This document shows, piece by piece, positions 5,655 through 64,000 of a DNA stretch of 64,000 bases. The stretch is taken from IMG/VR virus record IMGVR_UViG_3300017963_000011, positions 41,135 to 105,134 of that record; one strand, 5' to 3'. Position 1 is the stretch's first letter. The number at the start of each line of letters is the position of its first letter. The position numbers were made by a program, and so were the translations under genes. The notes below the pieces were generated by a model, which saw nothing but the letters and a program-made list of their open reading frames with translations, was not told the DNA's origin and did no database searches. The DNA comes from a virus.

Positions 5655-6447
5655 GATTCTCGGTCAGCAGGCAGATGGGGAATTTCTCCTAGAAGAGGAG
5701 TTCCCCATCTCGAAGACCGTGACTCCAGATCACGGTGATGCTCCGGTCTACAATGAAGTCACCGGGAAGTACGAGCCTGCCCCGGTGGCTGGTGGTCACG
5801 CACGCCTTCATGAGATCGAGAGTCCTCTCGATCACAATGTCCAGGGAACCTTGTTGGATCGCCAAACGATCCAGTACAACCTCGCTGATGAGAAATGGGA
5901 ATTCACTGATTTCCCAGACGCGAATGCCACTCTTTTACCTGGCGTGACGATGTTAGGCACTGTGCTGAACTATCCTAAATCAGCATCTTTCGGTGCAGCT
6001 TCCGATATTCAGTATGTCCGTGTTTTCTTGGTTGAGGATGCGGAATACGACTCGTTCGTTGTCTTTGTCACGAATCGAGTTGCCTCTGTCGATATCCGTT
6101 TGGGCATCTATTCCCAGACTGATCCGAGTGATATTGATTTAGATCCCAATTCTAAGGTTGCAGAAACAAATGTGCGAACGATCCTCGCGGCAGATGAGGG
6201 CACATTTGTCGAGGTAGCTCTAACATCAAGCTACACTGTCCCAACAAGCGGCTACTATTGGTTCGCTATGATCTACGACGGAACCCCAAACTCAGTGTCA
6301 TTTGCTACGAGTGAGACTTTCCCTGCCGACTATCTTCCAAGAAGAGAAGAGAGCGGTTCTGGAGATACGCTTCCTGCAACAGCGTCCGGTCTTACTAATC
6401 CAGCAAGCGCGGTCATTCTCGTGGCAGCTAAGAAAGCGGTGACGTAA
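5638..6447 (+). CDS. Putative virion protein
   Basis: 269 aa, overlaps both neighbours, beta-sandwich-like C-terminal half. Confidence 0.55.
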   Translation: MGKKTEILGQQADGEFLLEEEFPISKTVTPDHGDAPVYNEVTGKYEPAPVAGGHARLHEIESPLDHNVQGTLLDRQTIQYNLADEKWEFTDFPDANATLLPGVTMLGTVLNYPKSASFGAASDIQYVRVFLVEDAEYDSFVVFVTNRVASVDIRLGIYSQTDPSDIDLDPNSKVAETNVRTILAADEGTFVEVALTSSYTVPTSGYYWFAMIYDGTPNSVSFATSETFPADYLPRREESGSGDTLPATASGLTNPASAVILVAAKKAVT

Positions 6448-10319: not shown

Positions 10320-10913
10320 ATGGCAAATATTCCTGCGCTTGCGGGCTATCAAACAGCTAACGGAGAAGCTGCTCCTGCCAAGTTCGGCGGCAGTGATGTC
10401 CTTACAGATCCTAACGGGAATGTCCTCCTGACCGCTGTCGGTGGTGCTGGTTCTATCGTGCCATTCGATACTCCAGTCATTGTCATGGCATATAACAACA
10501 CGCTCTATAGTGGAGCTACAACTGGCTCTCCATGGAACTACTCTAGCCAACACGCATTCAATGGTGTGATCGATCTTAGTGGCTTGACACCGGCAATTCC
10601 TTCTGGCGCTAAAGCTGTGATTCTGGTAACACTGGCCAATCTGTACAATACAGTGGGGGGTGCAGCGCGAGTCATTAACATGTACGCTGCCAAGCTGCAT
10701 GCTTCTCTCCCAACCGCAGCGCAATACGTCATGAGTAGCGCATACCATGTCGGTGGCGTTGCCGCTGGTGCTGAAGGAGTAGAATACGATGCCAATCCGG
10801 GTTACGGTATTGTGAATTTCAATGGTGACAGGACCGTGGCTATAGCCGCCTATTCTAACAACAGTCCAAACAATGCGTACTGGTACTGGAACGTAGCCGG
10901 GTACACGATCTAG
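10320..10913 (+). CDS. Tail fibre / receptor-binding protein 3
   Basis: N-terminus MANIPALAG...SDVLTDPNGNVL is related to the two upstream genes. Confidence 0.6.
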   Translation: MANIPALAGYQTANGEAAPAKFGGSDVLTDPNGNVLLTAVGGAGSIVPFDTPVIVMAYNNTLYSGATTGSPWNYSSQHAFNGVIDLSGLTPAIPSGAKAVILVTLANLYNTVGGAARVINMYAAKLHASLPTAAQYVMSSAYHVGGVAAGAEGVEYDANPGYGIVNFNGDRTVAIAAYSNNSPNNAYWYWNVAGYTI

Positions 10914-21215: not shown

Positions 21216-22372
21216 CCCTCATCATTCTCGGCGCCGCGAATGGTAGCGCTACCACCAAGCGATAGCTTCTTGGCGCATGCTTCCGGGAGCGGTTCAAGAG
21301 TAAATGGACAGATCTCGTGTTCTTGTAGGAAGAGATAGAGATCGTATTGAGCTTCTTCAAGCTCGTCACGTTTTTCATGAAGATTGTGGTCGACATCTAG
21401 CAAGTATTGCTCGACAACTTCTATACGCTTTGCCTGATCCACCACTTGTAAGTACGCACTGTAGAGTGCCTCGATATCTTCGACACCTTCCCCGGCGGCG
21501 AGTAATTCAGAAGGTTCGAGGTCTGGGATCTCAGGAATGCGATTAGTGATTTCTATGATCGAACCAAGGGAACTGATCTCCTCGACTATAGCAGTAGAAT
21601 CAATAACCTCAAGGCTTGCGCGCAAGTCTGCAAGTTCTTCCTTGACGGCCGCGCTTTCAGCATTGATCTGTTTGAGCTTCTTACTCTTGAGGATCACCTT
21701 AGACAAACGTTGGTGCTCGGCTAAGAGTTCATCACAACATAGATCATCATCCGGGATTGTGGCTTGGATGTTCTCGATCTCTACCTTTTTATTCTCTAAC
21801 TCTTCCTGAGCCGATGTGATGTCTTGTTTGATGTTGCGGATCTGTGCGTTGGTTTCTTTGAGCGCACTATCCACAGCGTTACGGCCAGACATAGAACCAA
21901 GAAGTTTCGATATCTTCGATGGCTTGAGAGCCAGTGGCAAGATGCGATCGAACTGGCCTATGAAGTTGAGCGAGACCTTCTCGTTGACGTCTTCGATGTC
22001 AAGGTTGGCGATGCGTGTGCGCTTAATCAAACCCTCTGGGATCTGCTTCTTGTACTTGCGCCAGGGCTCTTTCTCACCGGAGACTTTGATGTAGTCGTCG
22101 AGGACTCTTCCGGTTGCTGAAATATCAGTGTGCCGCTTCAGCTTGTAGTCGGTGTGATCGACAAGAACTGCCATGTCAGTTTCGCCGCACCGTATCCACG
22201 CCTTGCCCAGAAGATAGGCGTAACGGGTTCCTCGTATGAACGAGGACTTACCAGAGTCAGTCGATCCGTGAATTGCGACTAGCCTTATAGGTTCTCCGTC
22301 GCTACCAGTCAAGGTCAATGTCGTCGTCTTGTGACTCTGAAAGTTCCGAAACTTCGTCTTCCTGATCGGCAT
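21212..22372 (-). CDS. SbcC/Rad50 N-terminal half
   Basis: KFRNFQSH, Walker A GSTDSGKS, Q-loop-like GQFD, long coiled coil, hook-like CPFT. Confidence 0.8.
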   Translation of the reverse strand: MPIRKTKFRNFQSHKTTTLTLTGSDGEPIRLVAIHGSTDSGKSSFIRGTRYAYLLGKAWIRCGETDMAVLVDHTDYKLKRHTDISATGRVLDDYIKVSGEKEPWRKYKKQIPEGLIKRTRIANLDIEDVNEKVSLNFIGQFDRILPLALKPSKISKLLGSMSGRNAVDSALKETNAQIRNIKQDITSAQEELENKKVEIENIQATIPDDDLCCDELLAEHQRLSKVILKSKKLKQINAESAAVKEELADLRASLEVIDSTAIVEEISSLGSIIEITNRIPEIPDLEPSELLAAGEGVEDIEALYSAYLQVVDQAKRIEVVEQYLLDVDHNLHEKRDELEEAQYDLYLFLQEHEICPFTLEPLPEACAKKLSLGGSATIRGAENDEG

Positions 22373-55712: not shown

Positions 55713-55997
55713 CTAGTCTACTCGCTTCCCGTGCTCGTCAATCTCGTATGCGTCAAGATACATGGTCACACTGGCTTCGGCGGGCTCGGCGACGGCGGCG
55801 CGGCGCTGGCGCCAGCCGTCCATGCGCGGGCCGAGCGAGCGGCCCGCCGAGACGAGCCCGAGAGCGAGCACGGCGCCGAGCACGAGCCCGGCGGCCCATG
55901 CGAAGGCGCGGCGGCGGCGGCGCCGGCGGCCGGCGGCCCGTGCGCGAATGATAGACCGTGCCATGTGGCTTCGGCCCTTAATCGTTTCGTCTTTCAC
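55713..55997 (-). CDS. Small membrane protein
   Basis: GAAAGGGGAA SD and GTG; Arg-rich stretch followed by hydrophobic AFAWAAGLVLGAVLALGLVS. Confidence 0.6.
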   Translation of the reverse strand: MKDETIKGRSHMARSIIRARAAGRRRRRRRAFAWAAGLVLGAVLALGLVSAGRSLGPRMDGWRQRRAAVAEPAEASVTMYLDAYEIDEHGKRVD

Positions 55998-56050: not shown

Positions 56051-56066
56051 TGCAAGGGCCGTGCCA
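56051..56066 (-). promoter_or_regulatory. Sigma54 -24/-12 promoter
   Basis: TGGCAC-GGCCC-TTGCA. Confidence 0.85.
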
Positions 56067-56434
56067 TTCTCGGCCATGACATGTCAGCCGTGCCCGAGCA
56101 CGGCGCCGAGAGCGAGCCGGCCCATGTTCTTGGCGCCGAGAATGGCGGGCGCCAGCCGGGCCGAGACTGACAGCCATGCCAGTCTCGCCGAAGCATACAA
56201 TGTCAGCCGAGCGGCTGAAAGCCGCTTCCAGAGCGGATTAGAGCCTACTGACAAAAATGTCAGTATGGCTGACATGGATGCCAGCCGGGCCGGCCTTATA
56301 GTAGACGGGCGCATGACGCGCGCCCGCACGCGCGCCCGCACGCGCGCCCGAAGAATCGGAAGCGATCGGCCATACAACGCGCGCGGGCGGGCGCGTAGAC
56401 TGCGCCCGCGTCATGTATATAGGGCCGCCGAGCT

Positions 56435-56450
56435 TGGCACGGCCCTTGCA
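56435..56450 (+). promoter_or_regulatory. Sigma54 -24/-12 promoter
   Basis: TTGGCAC-GGCCC-TTGCA. Confidence 0.85.
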
Positions 56451-56662
56451 TAGCAATCGGCGGCCGAAGGGGAAGCGAGGAAACGGCCGGCGCCATTCTC
56501 GGCGCCGAGAATATGACGGCCCGAGCCGGGCCGAGTATTGCCAGACATAGCACGGGCACGGGAAAGGCGGCCGGCGCCGGCCGAGAGCGGCGCGCGATAG
56601 TTCTTTGACATGTGAATACGAATCAACGCGTATCAACTACTGACATGCGAAAGGGAACACGC

Positions 56663-58102
56663 ATGAAGAAGAAACGCAAGAAAGGCGAATCCGTCAAGAC
56701 GGGCGCGCGTGGCGCAAACGTGCCGAAACAAAAAGCCGCCGCCGAGCGCAAGGCGGCCGAGAGCAACGCCCGAGACAAGAAAGCAGCCGGAATCAAGCCG
56801 CCGCCGCCCGTCAAGCCGAGCCCGGCGCCCGAGCCGAAGCCGGCCGAGCCCGCGCCGAATCCCATGGCGGCGCCCGAGACGCTTCATGACGGCAAGACGA
56901 GCAAGCCGAACACGCCCGGCGCGCCCGTAGCGCTGCATGGCTCGCTCATTCTCGAAACGTTCATGGGCGCCGCCGTCGCTCTCGTGTGTCGTCTCATGCT
57001 CGGCGCGCTTTATGACGAAGCCGCCGCGCTCATGGAAGCGACGAAGGCCGAACGCGCCGAGCTTGACGGCAAGACGGCGCCGAAGACGGCCCGAGACATG
57101 GACAAGAAACGCGCCGCTCTCACTACGCGCTACACTCGCACGCAAGACAATGCAATCAAACGCGGCGCGTATCTCGCCGTGATTCTGGCGACATGGGACA
57201 TTCGCCTTGACTTTACGGGAACGAACACGGCCGCATGGACATGGGCGCGTGACATTAACGGGAAAATCGTGAAAGACGAAAAGACGGGCAAGCCGAAGCG
57301 CATGACTGTCAAGCTACAAGACGTGTTCATGTCCGTACTGACACAAAACTACGGAAGCGCCATGAAGGAATTGCAATGCCTTCGCACGGCCGCCGAATTC
57401 CTGCCAGTATGCCCGGAAGCGATCCGGGCCGCTCTCGTGCCCGAGAGCGACGGCGCACGGCCCGAGAGCGAGAGCGCGGCAAGCATGGGGCTCGTGCTCG
57501 ATTTTCTTGCCAAACACGTGCATACCGATTCCGTGCCATACGTAAGGAAACACGCGAAGGAAAAGGGAATCGGCGTCACGTGGCAAGCTCTCACAAACGA
57601 GAGCGAGCGCGCCGCGCTCGGCCGGCCCGACAAAGGCAAGGGGAAGGGGAAAGACAAGACGAAAGGCAAGCCGCCCGCGAAGAAAAAGCAAAAGCATGTG
57701 AACGTCTACAACGCACGCGGCGAAAAGGTTACGCTTGACATGGAACGCGCCAAGAATGCAGCCGCCGCCGCCGAAGGCAAGGCCGAAGAGAGTGAAACGG
57801 AGCGCGCCGCCCGTATCGTCGATGGAGTAGACATGAGCGAAACGGAGCGCGAAGCCGTCAAAAAGGCGCGCGAAGCCGGTCTGAATGACGGATGGGCCGC
57901 GCTTCGAAGCCTCGCGTCTCAACTCATGGGCGATCCGAGCACCGAAGGCTTCGACATGACGGGCGCCATGATTTTCGTCGAATGGCTCTCGGGACAAATC
58001 GCGGCGGCCGGAGACGCCGCCGCCGAGCGGGCCGAGCTTAGGCATGCCACGTCGAAGGCTAACAAGGCGGCCGTAGTGGGCGCCGCCCGAGTGAACGCGT
58101 AG
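56663..58102 (+). CDS. Lys/Ala-rich hypothetical protein (479 aa)
   Basis: Long ORF with a GAAAGGGAA SD; followed by a hairpin and T-tract at 58111-58145. Confidence 0.75.
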   Translation: MKKKRKKGESVKTGARGANVPKQKAAAERKAAESNARDKKAAGIKPPPPVKPSPAPEPKPAEPAPNPMAAPETLHDGKTSKPNTPGAPVALHGSLILETFMGAAVALVCRLMLGALYDEAAALMEATKAERAELDGKTAPKTARDMDKKRAALTTRYTRTQDNAIKRGAYLAVILATWDIRLDFTGTNTAAWTWARDINGKIVKDEKTGKPKRMTVKLQDVFMSVLTQNYGSAMKELQCLRTAAEFLPVCPEAIRAALVPESDGARPESESAASMGLVLDFLAKHVHTDSVPYVRKHAKEKGIGVTWQALTNESERAALGRPDKGKGKGKDKTKGKPPAKKKQKHVNVYNARGEKVTLDMERAKNAAAAAEGKAEESETERAARIVDGVDMSETEREAVKKAREAGLNDGWAALRSLASQLMGDPSTEGFDMTGAMIFVEWLSGQIAAAGDAAAERAELRHATSKANKAAVVGAARVNA

Positions 58103-58580
58103 AGTCTCCCGAGCCGCCGGGCCGTGCCCGGCGGCTCTCTTTTTCTACGCGCGCATGGTAGCGCTACCACGGGCCGCACGCTCGGCGCCAGCCGGGCCGA
58201 AAGGGGCCGCCGAGCCGCCCGAGATTCGCCACGAGACGCCCGGAATCGGCCCGGATTCGTCCGATCGCATGGCGAGACGGGCCGAGACAAGGGCCGGCCG
58301 CCTTGCGGGCGTTAAACGGCGAATCTGCTAGACAAGCGGCGCGCATGCGCGTCCTATATATACATGACGCATGCGCAGTCTACGCACGCACGCCCGCACG
58401 CCCGCACGCGCCCGCGCGTGCGCACGCCCGAAGAATGGAAGCGATCCGGCCCATGAGACGCGCGCACGTCTATAAGGTCGAATCCCTACCTTTTCTTCGG
58501 GCGCACGCGTGCGTGCGGGCGCGCATGTATATAAGAAAAGCCGCCGGCCCGAGCGGGCCGGCGGCGCTGGCGCCGGGCGT

Positions 58581-59003
58581 TTAGACGTACACATGCCCGC
58601 AACGATAGCAATGGAGAGCGGGCATGTCAGTCTCGCCATACGTGCAAGGCGAGAGCAACGCGCCGCACACGCTACATTCTTCGCATTCGTGCGCTTCGGG
58701 TGCGTCGTATCCTTGCCACAATTCGCGCCCGTGCTCGTCTCTCGGCCATTCGCCGTTGATAGTCAGCCGGCCCGTATCTCGCGCCCATTGCAGCGCGGCG
58801 CGGCGGGCGTCTTTCTTGCGCGCCTTATCCGCAATGGAGAGCGCCAGCCGCCGGCCGCTCGGGCAAGCCGGCCCGGCGCCGATTCCTTCGACGTGCCAGC
58901 CGTAGGATTCATGCGTGACAGTAGCAAGGCGGGCGCCGTCGAAAAGCCGCACGAGCACGAGCCGGCGCCGGCTCTCGCGCTTCCATGCATAGTCGTTTAC
59001 CAT
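58581..59003 (-). CDS. Hypothetical protein with C-terminal Zn ribbon(s)
   Basis: GAAAGGGG SD; CSVC...CYRC; sigma54 promoter upstream and terminator downstream. Confidence 0.65.
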   Translation of the reverse strand: MVNDYAWKRESRRRLVLVRLFDGARLATVTHESYGWHVEGIGAGPACPSGRRLALSIADKARKKDARRAALQWARDTGRLTINGEWPRDEHGRELWQGYDAPEAHECEECSVCGALLSPCTYGETDMPALHCYRCGHVYV

Positions 59004-59032
59004 TCTCGGCCCCTTTCGTCGCCTTTTTCACG

Positions 59033-59048
59033 TGCAAGCGCCGTGCCA
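59033..59048 (-). promoter_or_regulatory. Sigma54 -24/-12 promoter
   Basis: TGGCAC-GGCGC-TTGCA. Confidence 0.85.
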
Positions 59049-59367
59049 TGTTTCGGCTGACATAGCAGACATGAGCGAGCCCGCATGACTACGGCCGGCG
59101 GCCCGCTCATTCTCGGCGCCGAGACTGGCGAGACTGGCATGGCTGTCAGTCTCGCCGAAGCCCGGAATGTCGGCCGAGAGCCCGAGAGCCGCCATGGAAG
59201 CGGATTTGAGCCTACTGACATTTTTGTCACTACGGCTGACATGGATGCCAGCCGCCGGCCCTATATAGTATACGCTCGCATGACGCGCGCGCCCGCGCGT
59301 GCCCGAAGAAAAGGAAGCGATCCGGCCCATGAACGTGCGCGCGTCATGTATATAGGGCCGCCGAGCT

Positions 59368-59383
59368 TGGCACGGCCCTTGCA
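59368..59383 (+). promoter_or_regulatory. Sigma54 -24/-12 promoter
   Basis: TTGGCAC-GGCCC-TTGCA. Confidence 0.85.
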
Positions 59384-59589
59384 TTGTCAATCGGCGCCGA
59401 AGAGGAAGCCGGGCCGAGCAAGGCGGGCGCGGCGGGCCGCAAGGCCGAAGCAAGAAATGCCACGAGCACGAGCCGGCGCATGTGTTCGCAAAATATGGCC
59501 GGCCCGAGTAGCCGAGCCGCCGCAAGGCGGCCCGGCTTCGGGACATGAGAGCGGCCCGAGCCGGGCCGCACGTATCGAAGGGAACACAC

Positions 59590-59916
59590 ATGAGAATCGA
59601 CGTCGAAGCGATCATGAGCGGGCATGCGCTTGCCGAGCGCGGCAAGCTGCGCAAGCGGCGCGCGCTCTCTCACTCCATGCGCTCTCGGGCCGTGCGCGGC
59701 ATTCGGGCCGATCGGGAAGCCGCCGCCGAGAGCGCCGAGCCGCCCGCCCGGCGGCCCGAGCCCGCCGGCCGCCGGCCGATCGCCATGAGCGTGCCCGAGC
59801 CCGCCACGTACCACGGCGAGACGCCCGCGCCGTGCCACGTCGAAGGCGCCGGCTCGTGCGGCTCGTGCCCGGATTGCATGAACGTGCGCCACGAGCCCGA
59901 GCCGCCGGCCGAGTAG
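59590..59916 (+). CDS. Hypothetical protein with a Cys cluster
   Basis: GAAGGGAA SD; CH..GAGSCGSCPDC; terminator near 59960-59990. Confidence 0.55.
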   Translation: MRIDVEAIMSGHALAERGKLRKRRALSHSMRSRAVRGIRADREAAAESAEPPARRPEPAGRRPIAMSVPEPATYHGETPAPCHVEGAGSCGSCPDCMNVRHEPEPPAE

Positions 59917-60329
59917 CGCGCCGCCGGGCTCTCGGCCCCTTGCCCGGCGCTTGCCACGAGACGCCCGCCCGTGCGGGCGTCTTTCTTTATACGTGCGCGC
60001 GCCCGTAGTAGTGCCGAATCCCTTCCTTTTCTTGGCGGGCGCGGGCGCGGGCGTGCGTCATGTACTATATAGACGCGGGCGCGTGCGGCTTGTCTTACAG
60101 ATTCGCCGTCTAACGGCCGATCGGCCGGCGGGCCGGCCCAACATACGGCCCGAGCCGAGAGCGGCCCTATACGGCCCGATTCCGGCCGTCTCGTGGCGAA
60201 TCTCGGCGCCCGTCTCGGCCCCTATGGGCCGGCGCCGGCCCGCGTGCGCATGGTAGCGCTACCACGGCCGCCCGCGCGCGCGTATAGAAAAAGCCGCCGG
60301 CCCTTCGGCCGGCGGCTCTCGTGCGCCGT

Positions 60330-60656
60330 CTAGTGAATCGCCTTGAAGCGGGCGCCCGTCTCGGGCATGGCTTCGATCGGCACGAGCCATGCGCCGTCTC
60401 TGTAGTAGACATGGCGGCCGTCTTGCCAGACAACGCGCCAGCCGCCGAGCACGGCGCGGGCGCCGGGCCGCTGGATTTTCACGTATCCGATTCGGCGCCA
60501 GCCGTAGCGCGCCGCCTTCGGCCCGCTGATTTGAATCGCGCCGTCGCTCTCCCGATACGGCGCGAGCGTCAAATCCAGACACAAGCCGCGATTCACAAGC
60601 ATGCGGCTCGTGAAAAGCTCGCCAGTCTCCATGCTGATTTTCTCGAATGTCGCCAT
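60330..60656 (-). CDS. Hypothetical protein
   Basis: GAAAGGGG SD before MATFEKIS; terminator downstream. Confidence 0.65.
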   Translation of the reverse strand: MATFEKISMETGELFTSRMLVNRGLCLDLTLAPYRESDGAIQISGPKAARYGWRRIGYVKIQRPGARAVLGGWRVVWQDGRHVYYRDGAWLVPIEAMPETGARFKAIH

Positions 60657-60707
60657 GTCGGCCCCTTTCGTCTCGGCCCGGCGGCTTGCCGTGCTCGATT
60701 TTTGATA

Positions 60708-60723
60708 TGCGATTCCCGTGCCA
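60708..60723 (-). promoter_or_regulatory. Sigma54 -24/-12 promoter
   Basis: TTGGCAC-GGGAA-TCGCA. Confidence 0.75.
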
Positions 60724-61432
60724 AGTCTCGGCGCTGGCATGTCAGCCGAGAGCCCGAGCGCGCACGAGAGCCGGCGCCGGGCCGGCTGCTCGCTAGTCTC
60801 GGCGCCGAGAATGCCGCAAGGGCCGAATCGGAATTCTCGATTCCGATTTTTTCGGCGAGAGGCTCTCAAATCCGCTTCCAGAGCGGCTTTCCAGCGATCG
60901 GAACTCCCGGTTCCGATCGGAATTGTCAGTTCCGATTTTGCCCGCAAGCCGCCATGAGAGCCGAAGACAGCCGAGCCGGTCCCTATAGTATACATGCCCG
61001 TGCGCACGCCCGCATGACGCGCGCACGGGCGCGGGCGCGAAGAAAAGGAAGCGATCCGGCCCATGCTACGCGCGCCCGCGCCCGTCTTGTGTCTATATAG
61101 ACACAAAAGACGCCCGCACGGCGGCCGGCCACCGATTCCGGCTGGCGCGGCCCCAAAATACGCCACGAGAGCGCCGGAATCGGCCCGGATTCGGCCGATC
61201 GCAAGCCGGCCCCTATCTCGGCCCGTCTCGCCGAGCGATCGGCCCGGATTCGGCGAATCTGCTAGACAAGCGGCGCGCGCACGCGTCTATATAGAGACAT
61301 GGCGCACATGCGCGCACGCCCGCCCGCGCACGCGAAGAAAAGGAAGGGGAAAAGCCCCCTATAGACGCGCACGGGCACGCGCGCACATGAGAAAAGCCGC
61401 CGGGCCGGCCCGGCGGCTCTCGTGCGGCTCTC

Positions 61433-61624
61433 CTATCCTACGAGCAAGAGAGAGCCGTCCATGAACGCGCTAACCTTTTCGCCCGGCTTCATGTTGCCCG
61501 CATAATCGTACATTTCGCCAGCCGAGACGGTAAACCATGCATAGTCGTCTCGATTCATAATCACCTTGACTTGAATCGCGCTGGCTCTGTTTACCGCGTT
61601 CATAAGCTCGTGTCGGTCCATCAT
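61433..61624 (-). CDS. Hypothetical protein (63 aa)
   Basis: GAAAGGGG SD before MMDRHELMNAV; terminator downstream. Confidence 0.6.
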   Translation of the reverse strand: MMDRHELMNAVNRASAIQVKVIMNRDDYAWFTVSAGEMYDYAGNMKPGEKVSAFMDGSLLLVG

Positions 61625-61675
61625 TTTCGGCCCCTTTCGTCTTGCGGGCGGCTTGCCCGGCTCGCCATTCTTCAA

Positions 61676-61691
61676 TGCAAAGCGTGTGCCA
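61676..61691 (-). promoter_or_regulatory. Sigma54 -24/-12 promoter
   Basis: TTGGCAC-ACGCT-TTGCA. Confidence 0.85.
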
Positions 61692-62138
61692 AGTCTCGCG
61701 CCCGCTGTACACTCTACCACGCCCGCGCCCGTATTCCCCTATAGACGCACGGCGCGAAGAGCAAGGAAGCGAAAAAAGCCGCCCGAGCCGCCGGCCGCCG
61801 CCCGGCGCTACTGACAGCCATGCCAGTCTCGGCGCCGAGAATGACCACGAATCCGGGCCGGCCGGCTGCGCTCAAATCCGCCATGGGCGCCGTTTTGCGG
61901 CCCATACTGACATTTGTGTCACTAGCCGACATTGAGAGCACCGAATCGGCCGAGAGCCGCGCCAGCAAAGCAATACAAGCCGGCCGCCGGCTCGTGCTAC
62001 TGACAAAAATGTCAGTCCCTATATACGTATAAGCGCACGCCCGCATGCGCGCGCCCGTGCGAAGAAAAGGAAGGGATTCGGCCCTATAGACGCGCACGCG
62101 CCCGCATGCGCAGTGTAGCGCTACCACGAGCCGAAACA

Positions 62139-62154
62139 TGGCACGGCGCTTGCA
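62139..62154 (+). promoter_or_regulatory. Sigma54 -24/-12 promoter
   Basis: TGGCAC-GGCGC-TTGCA. Confidence 0.85.
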
Positions 62155-62180
62155 CTAAGGCAAGCGAAAGGGGAAACGAA

Positions 62181-62291
62181 ATGAGCAAGCGAGAACGAAA
62201 CGCCCGCCGCCTCGACTGGCTTATGCAATCGTTCATGGTCGCCGTTATGACGGCCGCCATTCTGGCCTATAACGGTACGATCGTATTCTAG
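62181..62291 (+). CDS. 36-aa membrane peptide
   Basis: GAAAGGGGAA SD; basic N-terminus then a hydrophobic helix. Confidence 0.55.
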   Translation: MSKRERNARRLDWLMQSFMVAVMTAAILAYNGTIVF

Positions 62292-62307
62292 GAAAGGGGA
62301 AAAGACA

Positions 62308-62574
62308 ATGACGCACGAGGAATTCATGAAGCGCCGCGCCGAGCTTTTCGAGGAAGCGAAGCGCATTCTTCGCACGCTGGCGCCCGAGACTCGCATGGCG
62401 AGTGAAACCGAAAAGAGCACGGCCGAGCTTTTCGAAGCCGCGCCGCTCTCGTGCCCGTACTGCGCAAGCAATAACACGAGCACATGCGATTTTGGCGGCC
62501 CGTTTTGCCTCGATTGTGGCGCCACGTTTGACGGCGCCGGCTTCGTCAACGGCGAATGGACGGGCCGCCAGTAA
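62308..62574 (+). CDS. Small Zn-ribbon protein
   Basis: GAAAGGGGAA SD; CPYC...CLDC; terminator near 62595-62625. Confidence 0.65.
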   Translation: MTHEEFMKRRAELFEEAKRILRTLAPETRMASETEKSTAELFEAAPLSCPYCASNNTSTCDFGGPFCLDCGATFDGAGFVNGEWTGRQ

Positions 62575-64000
62575 ATACGCCCGCAAGCATGCAGCCGGCC
62601 GCCGAAAGGCGGCCGGCTCTCTTTATACGCGCATGCCCGCGCCCGCCGTCTTTATTCCCCCTTTATGCGCATGCTTTATATACGCATACGCCCGTATATA
62701 AGGCAAGGAATCCCTACCTTTTCTTCGCACACGCGGGCGCTTATACGCTAGTAATATACATATACGAGCCCGCTTATACATGTATAAGCGTCTATGCGTG
62801 CGCTACTGTACACACGCACGCACGAAGGAAACGGCTCGGCACGGCTGGCAGTATGGCCACGAGGAGGGCCGCAAACGGCCCATTTTGGGCCGATCGGCCT
62901 TCGGCCCTTGCATCGGTATGGCTCGGGCGTATATCGGGCCGGATTCGGGCGCTTAGGGGCTCGGCTTTCTCGTCAATCTCTCGGGCTCGGCTGAACCTTC
63001 CCGCACGCACGCGCGCATGTACGCGTGGCGATCCGAAACATGGCATGCTGGCCAGTGTAGCGCTACCACGAGACGGCGGCCCGGCTTGCGGCTGACATGG
63101 CAAGGCGGCGGGCTCGGCGCTGGCTTGTCAGTCTCGGCGCCGAGAATGCGGCGGCTGACAAGTCAAGGCGCGGGCGTGCTACTGTCAACGCTGTCATATC
63201 AAGCACGTATCCCTTTACTGGCGCGCGTTTCGGCATTGACATGACAACGTTGCCAGTATGGCGCGGCTGACAAGTCAACGCGCAAGAGACGGGCACGGGC
63301 GGGCGTGTGTAGCGTATAGCGCGGGCGCCCGATTCCTTTCCTGGCGCGGGCGCGGGCGTGTGTAGCATATACCACGGACGCGGGCGCCCGTCGACGGGCG
63401 CGGGCGTCTTGCGCGCTCCGTGTGGCCTACCGGGAAACGTTAGACGTATACGTACGAGGCGGCCCACTCCCACGCAGATTTTTTTCAGAAATCCTGGACG
63501 ACCGGAATTCCGTGGTAGCGCTACCACTCGATGCGACTTTGCGCATCGAGTACGACGGTGGTACAGGCTACCAATGGTAGCTGCAACATCAGAAATAAAG
63601 CCGAGGGCCGCCTGAAATCTCAGTATCAAAAAGGTTGCAAACGTATGTGTACACGCTACATTGTGTACATATTACATCGCAAAATGTACCGAGAGCGACT
63701 ACAAAAGTGCGCGTTTTATCCGCTTTTCGCTCATAACAGCGTATTTCTTATTGATCTCTATGCCGATGTAGCGCCTGCTCAGAGAGCAAGCAGCGAGTCC
63801 TGTAGTACCTGCGCCAGAGAATGGATCTAACACGATGCAAGGTACGGTTTCTTCGGTATCGCATGCGCACATCTGCTGCCAGCCTAGTGTGTGATAATCT
63901 GCTACTCCGCGGGTTACGGTCTCGTCTAGTGCTTCTCGTTTGCCTATTTCTCTGAAGCCAGATGCTACCGGGCCTTTGCGTGTAGAGGACTTCCGTTCAA

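Follow-up and report, generated by a model that had tools for sequence, protein, structure and literature searches.

What controls the cassettes of small genes near the right end of IMG/VR virus record IMGVR_UViG_3300017963_000011, and what are the short inverted repeats between their divergent promoters for? We analysed the last 64 kb of this 105,134-bp phage genome (positions 41,135 to 105,134, or 64,000 nt; hereafter the window). The record has a terminal overlap and an estimated completeness of 100%. GC content is ∼52% over most of the genome and 63–68% at window positions 53.5–63.4 kb, where copies of an interrupted palindrome, TGACA-N4-TG(T/C)CA (the TGACA dyad), lie between sigma54-type promoters. 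Sigma54 promoters fire only with an activated bacterial enhancer-binding protein (bEBP), and bEBPs bind tandem dyad upstream activator sequences (UASs) about 100–200 bp upstream and act in either orientation. From the arrangement of the sequence, we think it probable that the TGACA dyads are UASs, that is, enhancers, for a dimer-binding bEBP of the NtrC family belonging to the host.

The window contains ten TGACA dyads, against 0.26 expected, and none of 100 shuffles reached ten. All lie at 56.2–63.3 kb, with starts at 56168, 56249, 56270, 59135, 59216, 59237, 61812, 61908, 62001 and 63242, exactly as given in a preliminary description of this DNA. For the 9.9-kb GC-rich region (65% GC), 0.005 copies would be expected under a first-order Markov model, and the remaining 95 kb of the genome holds no further one. 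Three dyads lie between the promoters of each of three divergent sigma54 pairs (modules A, B and D). Their number per pair, and the spacing of 81 and then 21 bp described for the first two clusters (A and B), were confirmed; in module D, the spacings are 96 and 93 bp. The dyads are listed here as 16-bp units.

56167..56182: dyad A1, CTGACAGCCATGCCAG, core of an imperfect 24-bp palindrome
56248..56263: dyad A2, CTGACAAAAATGTCAG, a perfect dyad
56269..56284: dyad A3, CTGACATGGATGCCAG, 21 bp from A2
59134..59149: dyad B1, the A1 24-mer exactly reverse-complemented in an otherwise collinear scaffold
59215..59230: dyad B2, A2 inverted in place, with one change
59236..59251: dyad B3, same sequence as A3
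61811..61826: dyad D1, same sequence as A1, abutting an TCTCGGCGCCGAGA palindrome
61907..61922: dyad D2, CTGACATTTGTGTCAC
62000..62015: dyad D3, CTGACAAAAATGTCAG
63241..63256: tenth dyad, ATGACAACGTTGCCAG, with no sigma54 box beside it

Alignment of the 20 half-sites showed that the motif as first proposed is present but falls short of the conserved unit, which spans 16–18 bp and reads aCTG(A/g)CA-N4-TG(T/c)CAGt. Of the two flanking bases, the C is kept in 17 of the 20 half-sites and the A in 15. The hexamer CTGACA/TGTCAG is itself abundant in the GC-rich region, with 24 occurrences (1.4 expected).

The promoters were recognized by their −24/−12 boxes. At 54.8–62.2 kb, TGGCAC-N5-TTGCW occurs in seven perfect copies and one with a single mismatch (0.005 perfect copies expected). 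Six of these boxes form the three divergent pairs, each enclosing its three dyads. Each box faces a small gene 16–201 nt downstream, and a terminator-like hairpin follows four of the genes. The boxes belonging to modules are as follows.

56051..56066, minus strand: sigma54-type −24/−12 box, module A, leftward, TGGCACGGCCCTTGCA
56435..56450, plus strand: sigma54-type box, module A, rightward
59033..59048, minus strand: sigma54-type box, module B, leftward
59368..59383, plus strand: sigma54-type box, module B, rightward
60708..60723, minus strand: sigma54-type box, module C, unpaired, one mismatch
61676..61691, minus strand: sigma54-type box, module D, leftward
62139..62154, plus strand: sigma54-type box, module D, rightward

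A ninth box, beyond the window at genome position ∼17.8 kb, abuts a sigma70-type promoter (TTGACA-N17-TATTAT) ahead of a 479-aa gene. It has an GTAGCGCTAC palindrome 38 bp upstream and no TGACA dyad.

If transcription is taken to start 12 nt beyond the box, each of the six starts has its nearest dyad centre 120–186 bp upstream, and the other centres lie 202–348 bp upstream. These values refine the earlier figure of roughly 90–270 bp while leaving the sites in the UAS range (roughly 80–300 bp upstream of a −24/−12 promoter with GG-N10-GC). Two further properties of enhancers, dyad symmetry and the presence of at least two sites per promoter, are also seen, with three dyads per module and one pair 21 bp apart in modules A and B. 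All dyads are at least 100 bp away from every sigma54 box, and prediction of sigma70-type promoters gave none over the dyads, which argues against classical operators.

The arrangement is reminiscent of described bEBP targets. NorR requires three enhancer sites, GT-N7-AC (PMC2831303); PexR has three tandem interrupted palindromes, CACCG-N6-CGGTG (PMC12754779); and NmpR has pairs of GCGCA-N5-TGCGC (PMC11841059). Like the phage dyads, these UASs are interrupted palindromes with half-sites of 5–6 bp, occur two or three per promoter, lie ∼80–250 bp upstream of a −24/−12 promoter and are independent of orientation. The phage differs in that its sites, which are candidates, have a sequence of their own, one of the three stands 81–96 bp from the others, and the genome encodes neither sigma54 nor an activator. 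Comparison with known bEBP sites, proposed earlier as a means of naming the activator, gave no match: NmpR, PexR and NorR sites differ, and full-text searches of bEBP papers turned up no described site that matches the TGACA dyad. Another sigma54-associated motif, the 13-bp palindrome TGTCA-N3-TGACA (the heat-shock type of Bacteroidota), is made of the same pentamers in the reverse arrangement and at another spacing; it has no perfect copy in the window and two one-mismatch matches far from the cassettes, which is chance level. In E. coli, zraP/zraSR (ZraR) and hyc/hyp (FhlA) are familiar examples of divergent sigma54 promoters that enclose activator sites. There, as with the candidate sites of the phage, the intergenic region spans a few hundred bp and holds a small number of sites between back-to-back promoters. 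The phage, however, has the arrangement three times, carries a 105-bp GC-rich inverted-repeat element before the rightward promoter, and has no regulator gene next door.

Alignment of the intergenic regions revealed a repeated scaffold. From left to right, it consists of the leftward sigma54 box, an TCTCGGCGCCGAGA palindrome, dyad 1, an CCGCTTCCAGAGCGG box, dyads 2 and 3, the GC-rich element of ∼105 bp (TATA-like boxes at its bounds and GAAGAAAAGGAAG at its centre), and finally the sigma54 box that faces right. Over the 126 bp of the dyad stretch, modules A and B share 78% identity. By column, identity is 92% in the half-sites, 33% in the N4 spacers and 78% elsewhere. Moreover, comparison of the two modules shows dyad 1 and dyad 2 inverted where they stand, with flanks still collinear. 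Module C (60828..60935) has the same scaffold as A and B, with the TGACA dyads replaced by three TCGGAA-N7-TTCCGA dyads at 60828, 60898 and 60917 (0.17 expected). These stand at −141, −211 and −230, the slots held in module A by TGACA dyads at −136, −216 and −238. Together, half-site conservation, in-place inversion and the swap in module C indicate that half-sites are retained, that orientation is indifferent and that the positions are slots which take different sites. This is indirect evidence, read from sequence, that the dyads may work in either orientation. Apart from the TGACA and TCGGAA dyads, no motif is restricted to the sigma54 modules.

Other repeats are more widespread. TCTCGGCGCCGAGA is a perfect 14-bp palindrome with 25 copies at window positions 21226–63132; it is restricted to the leftward-transcribed arm, with one copy per sigma54 module. 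GTAGCGCTAC, a perfect 10-bp palindrome, has 35 copies genome-wide, several of them just past terminators or 25–40 bp upstream of sigma54 boxes. The ∼105-bp elements, at 56290–56430, 59260–59360, 60965–61110, 62015–62110 and other places, have inverted ends, a central GAAGAAAAGGAAG box and TATA(T)AGGG ends that face outward. They are found between dyads and the rightward sigma54 box and also past terminators.

Could the dyads instead be palindromic repeats, selfish or able to form hairpins, that play no part in regulation and were copied when the modules were duplicated? Modules A and B are indeed paralogues, dyad 1 is the same in A and D and an exact reverse complement in B, and hairpin-mediated template switching yields in-place inversion of just this kind. 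The dyad is also shared by elements resembling repetitive extragenic palindromes (REP-like elements), dozens of which occur in Idiomarina. We nevertheless regard passive copying as quite improbable, because half-sites are better conserved than their flanks while spacers vary freely, a recurrent TGCCA variant disrupts the hairpin stem at one fixed position, and module C has another dyad in the same three slots. The absence of dyads from the remaining genome and the invariance of the core at a sigma54 promoter across Myxococcaceae genera (see below) point the same way.

The extended sites also call to mind the SOS response. They read (T)ACTG-N10-CAGT(A), the outline of the LexA box of gamma- and beta-proteobacteria (CTGT-N8-ACAG, or CTG-N10-CAG in outline), and LexA-type boxes would tie the cassettes to host DNA damage. 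This identity is barely credible, since bases 4 and 13 are A and T (CTGA...TCAG rather than CTGT...ACAG), the sites keep their distance of at least 100 bp from any promoter box without overlap, and there are none in module C.

If the dyads are enhancers, whose protein would bind them? Domain searches of the whole phage genome found no Sigma54_activat domain (PF00158), the top match being a 12-bit P-loop in a PF00004-type protein; this is the only AAA protein of the phage, and it lacks GAFTGA. The searches likewise returned no sigma54 DNA-binding domain, HTH_8, HTH_3 or HTH_36 (PF13730), and no protein of the whole phage is homologous to an O-like initiator. Provided that the sigma54 boxes are promoters, the activator would thus have to be the host's. 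No T7-type RNA polymerase gene was detected in a search whose controls were likewise silent.

The dyads might, on the other hand, be operators for a dimeric protein other than a bEBP, either from the phage (of an unrecognised family) or from the host: a repressor or insulator of the cassettes, or a Rep-like initiator that would dimerise on inverted repeats and also bind direct repeats at an origin. The lack of recognisable helix-turn-helix or O-like genes in the phage speaks against this, but weakly so, because the 25- and 35-copy palindromes of the genome are presumably bound by proteins of unknown family. The absence of promoter overlap noted above is a second objection. A third is that the sigma54 promoters would still need an enhancer, and these promoters have no other motif of their own. 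Activators of the enhancer-binding class ordinarily depend on upstream sites.

Scans of other genomes bear directly on this alternative. We looked for two CTGACA-N4-TG(T/C)CAG sites 5–30 nt apart in IMG/VR and in one genome each for 185,579 species. IMG/VR gave 11 contigs, against ∼0.02 expected. In the contigs examined, arrays of 3–5 dyads at 22–23-bp spacing, adjoined by an AT-rich tract (30 bp), lie inside a gene with an HTH_36 domain that has a DnaB helicase gene next in line, and this is how lambda O/ori is laid out. In two further IMG/VR contigs, dyad arrays adjoin DnaA-box-like sequences. The lambdoid origin iterons (in IMG/VR contigs and contigs of Oscillospiraceae/Clostridia metagenome-assembled genomes) share with our phage the same 16-bp dyad, often with the same AAAA spacer, and a distance between sites of roughly two helical turns. 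Unlike the phage dyads, they occur as 3–5 tandem copies within a coding gene, beside an AT-rich tract and with no sigma54 box. The phage has only one adjacent pair per module, intergenic between divergent promoters rather than arrayed. Nor does an AT-rich unwinding tract adjoin its dyads: the region is GC-rich throughout, with only TATA-like boxes of 6–8 bp after the dyads. Three origin-like clusters within 6 kb would also be odd for an initiator. Since the same palindrome is an origin iteron in unrelated phages, motif matching alone cannot assign the binder. On balance, we judge a binder other than a bEBP unlikely, though with a probability that is not negligible.

The tenth dyad deserves separate mention here. 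It is set among CTGACA half-sites in different arrangements: at 63085–63290 there are three direct repeats of ∼20 bp, GCGGCTGACA(A/T)G(T/G)CAA(G/C)G, together with CTGTCAACGCTGTCAT and the dyad itself. These direct repeats, at 63.09–63.28 kb, contain CTGACA half-sites and lie at the right edge of the GC-rich region, adjoining the cumulative GC-skew minimum (∼62.9 kb). They may represent an origin or one more array of binding sites built on the CTGACA half-site.

The 185,579-species scan returned 62 loci, including prophage origins of Clostridia, dispersed repeats of Idiomarina and 13 loci of Myxococcaceae. Each of the dozens of REP-like elements in Idiomarina genomes is composed of GTAGCCTGACAT(W)2ATGTCAGG in two copies inverted to each other. 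The sigma54-like box that adjoins one such element appears accidental. The Myxococcaceae loci are of a different kind. Nine of them have sufficiently long flanks (those of Corallococcus, Myxococcus, Pyxidicoccus, Hyalangium, Vitiosangium and one metagenome-assembled genome), and every one of these has a TGGCAC-N5-TTGCT box 86–100 bp past the second dyad. In the alignment of these nine, the invariant blocks are two CTGACA-N4-TGTCAG dyads with centres 45 bp apart, one short box resembling GCAAGTGCCTGA, and the sigma54 box, whereas the N4 spacers vary freely and the remainder of the locus has diverged. The dyads lie ∼100 and ∼145 bp upstream of the conserved sigma54 promoter. Invariant dyads and box amid diverged sequence suggest the phylogenetic footprint of an enhancer plus its promoter. 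The locus resembles the phage modules in its half-site hexamer, its N4 spacing and its position upstream of a TGGCAC-N5-TTGC box. It differs in having two sites 45 bp apart rather than three, a flanking C rather than A, and a chromosomal location with one copy per genome. Single dyads elsewhere in Myxococcaceae genomes have no sigma54 box.

Downstream of the Myxococcaceae box lies a predicted transcript of ∼130 nt with three stem-loops, the last of which is an intrinsic terminator (z = −4.6). An epimerase gene lies upstream of the locus, and a large tetratricopeptide-repeat (TPR) gene follows the RNA. The Corallococcus coralloides copy occupies 5935–6290 of the chromosome stretch examined, and in Pyxidicoccus the hairpin-terminator unit seems to be in tandem repeat. 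We considered whether this RNA is pxr and rejected the identity, as pxr sits directly after pxrR/nla19 (PMC5568312, PMC5684412). An Rfam search with the RNA gave no match. Known sites of M. xanthus differ from the CTGACA dyad.

A second scan of IMG/VR, for one dyad 85–115 nt upstream of a sigma54 box, found two contigs of a single, unrelated 40-kb podovirus whose structural genes are arranged as in Mx8. In one (IMG/VR 3300006802_001050, 10505–10620), TGACAAGATTGTCA, TGACAAAAATGTAG and TGACAAAAATGTTA follow each other at 22- and 20-bp spacing (TGACA-N4-TGTNA). Their centres are at −120, −98 and −78 from the sigma54 box TGGCACGAGGTTTGCA, ahead of a 179-aa gene. This triplet lies in a divergent region before the terminase operon, and its box is the only sigma54 box of the podovirus; the second contig has this region too. 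Myxophage Mx8 itself has no sigma54 box and no dyad cluster. Thus the motif recurs upstream of sigma54 promoters in nine Myxococcaceae genomes and in a second phage, as would be expected of an enhancer.

Several observations weigh against the enhancer reading. The tenth dyad has no promoter, and its setting amid CTGACA direct repeats next to the GC-skew minimum leaves some probability to a Rep-like protein able to bind inverted and direct repeats alike. TGACA dyads are missing at two of the sigma54 boxes (54855, and genome position 17855), and the distances between dyads and promoters show no helical phasing between modules. Independent cases are few, because modules A and B, at their level of identity, are paralogues. 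Elsewhere, the dyad is used as origin iterons in HTH_36 initiator genes, beside DnaA boxes, and as REP-like repeats in Idiomarina. None of the 52 bEBP genes of Corallococcus is within 100 kb of the Myxococcaceae locus; the searches made identified neither the binding protein nor the host of the phage. TCGGAA-N7-TTCCGA is not enriched in 3 Myxococcaceae, 301 Myxococcota or 5 gammaproteobacterial genomes (4 Idiomarina, 1 Pseudomonas), and paired copies of it were absent from IMG/VR. With this dyad absent from their genomes, Myxococcaceae need not be the phage's host. The closest sequenced relative of the podovirus, MW202489 (69% identical capsid), lacks the dyad–sigma54 arrangement, and the IMG/VR scans gave no relative of the cassette region that would show conservation of the dyads across phages.

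Set against these points, the reading of the dyads as enhancers is the best supported. It rests on the dyads being confined to the cassettes, at UAS distances and in threes within each module, on the site swap and the inversions, together with the lack of a phage activator and with sigma54 promoters of Myxococcaceae and the 40-kb podovirus that share the core. Two extensions of it in the preliminary description find no support in the form given there. One was that a single shared enhancer fires both promoters of a pair: the sequence fits equally well a distal site and an adjacent pair that serve the two promoters separately. The other was that the motif should identify the host activator. The same dyad forms origin iterons and Idiomarina repeats, and no activator gene lies near the Myxococcaceae locus.

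In the mechanism that we envisage, three bEBP dimers on the three dyads would nucleate an AAA+ hexamer, which would loop to the closed sigma54–RNA polymerase complexes on both sides and open them. Expression of the small ORFan cassettes would then depend on the host signal that activates this bEBP, and module C, with its TCGGAA-N7-TTCCGA dyads, would respond to a second activator. Binding by a protein, the activator's identity and origin, the step of activation and any sharing between paired promoters are what we would infer from this arrangement. Because sigma54 promoters need an activated bEBP, phage cassettes behind them would cede their timing to host signal transduction. A bolder version is possible, although we lean against it: the fixed scaffold would provide plug-and-play enhancer modules through which different host pathways gate different ORFan cassettes, and the unnamed bEBP of the TGACA site would also drive the Myxococcaceae small RNA. 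If this were true, the phage motif could be used to find the activator and its regulon, and could point to the host lineage.

Reliance of a phage on host sigma54 has been described as rare. Development of Pseudomonas aeruginosa phage YuA depends on it (Ceyssens 2008, as summarized in PMC5053324), and one sigma54-like promoter of YuA has been mapped (bioRxiv 10.1101/2023.10.13.562163). Our phage is like YuA in being virulent and in its probable use of the host sigma54 holoenzyme for part of its programme. It differs in having eight sigma54 boxes in 9 kb and dyad clusters of two specificities, whereas the descriptions of YuA that we consulted mention no enhancer sites. The literature searched contained no phage enhancer. 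Here, candidate enhancers are explicit, come in threes and have two interchangeable specificities in one scaffold. What this phage adds is that interchangeable-site scaffold and a link to a conserved chromosomal enhancer, and the shared core in Myxococcaceae and a second phage offers a route to the activator.

The phage encodes a family B DNA polymerase (PolB), a DnaB-like helicase and a SNF2-type helicase. Cultured relatives of PolB and the helicase are distant only, and megablast against cultured phages gave no match; a 103-kb contig in ENA encodes a PolB 49% identical to that of the phage. Scans of IMG/VR with PolB (as one sequence and as an alignment), with the cassette protein of 479 aa and with a 16-bp palindrome, TTCTCGGCGCCGAGAA, revealed nothing related to the cassette region. 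When metagenomes were scanned with the DNA methylase that flanks this region, 80 loci were obtained, none with dyads or cassette motifs. The cassette genes are as follows.

55713..55964, minus strand: gene of 83 aa, one weak sub-threshold Pfam match and no PHROGs match
56663..58102, plus strand: gene of 479 aa, no relative among 5.8 billion proteins
58581..59003, minus strand: gene of 140 aa, Cys-rich C-terminus
59590..59916, plus strand: gene of 108 aa
60330..60656, minus strand: gene of 108 aa, module C
61433..61624, minus strand: gene of 63 aa
62181..62574, plus strand: two genes, of 36 aa and 88 aa, the 88-aa protein with a weak zinc-ribbon match

The cassette proteins are all without relatives, have no significant Pfam match (three weak matches fall under curated cut-offs) and belong to no PHROGs family. 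Those encoded at 58581–59003, 59590–59916 and 62308–62574 have C-termini that are Cys4 or zinc-ribbon-like.

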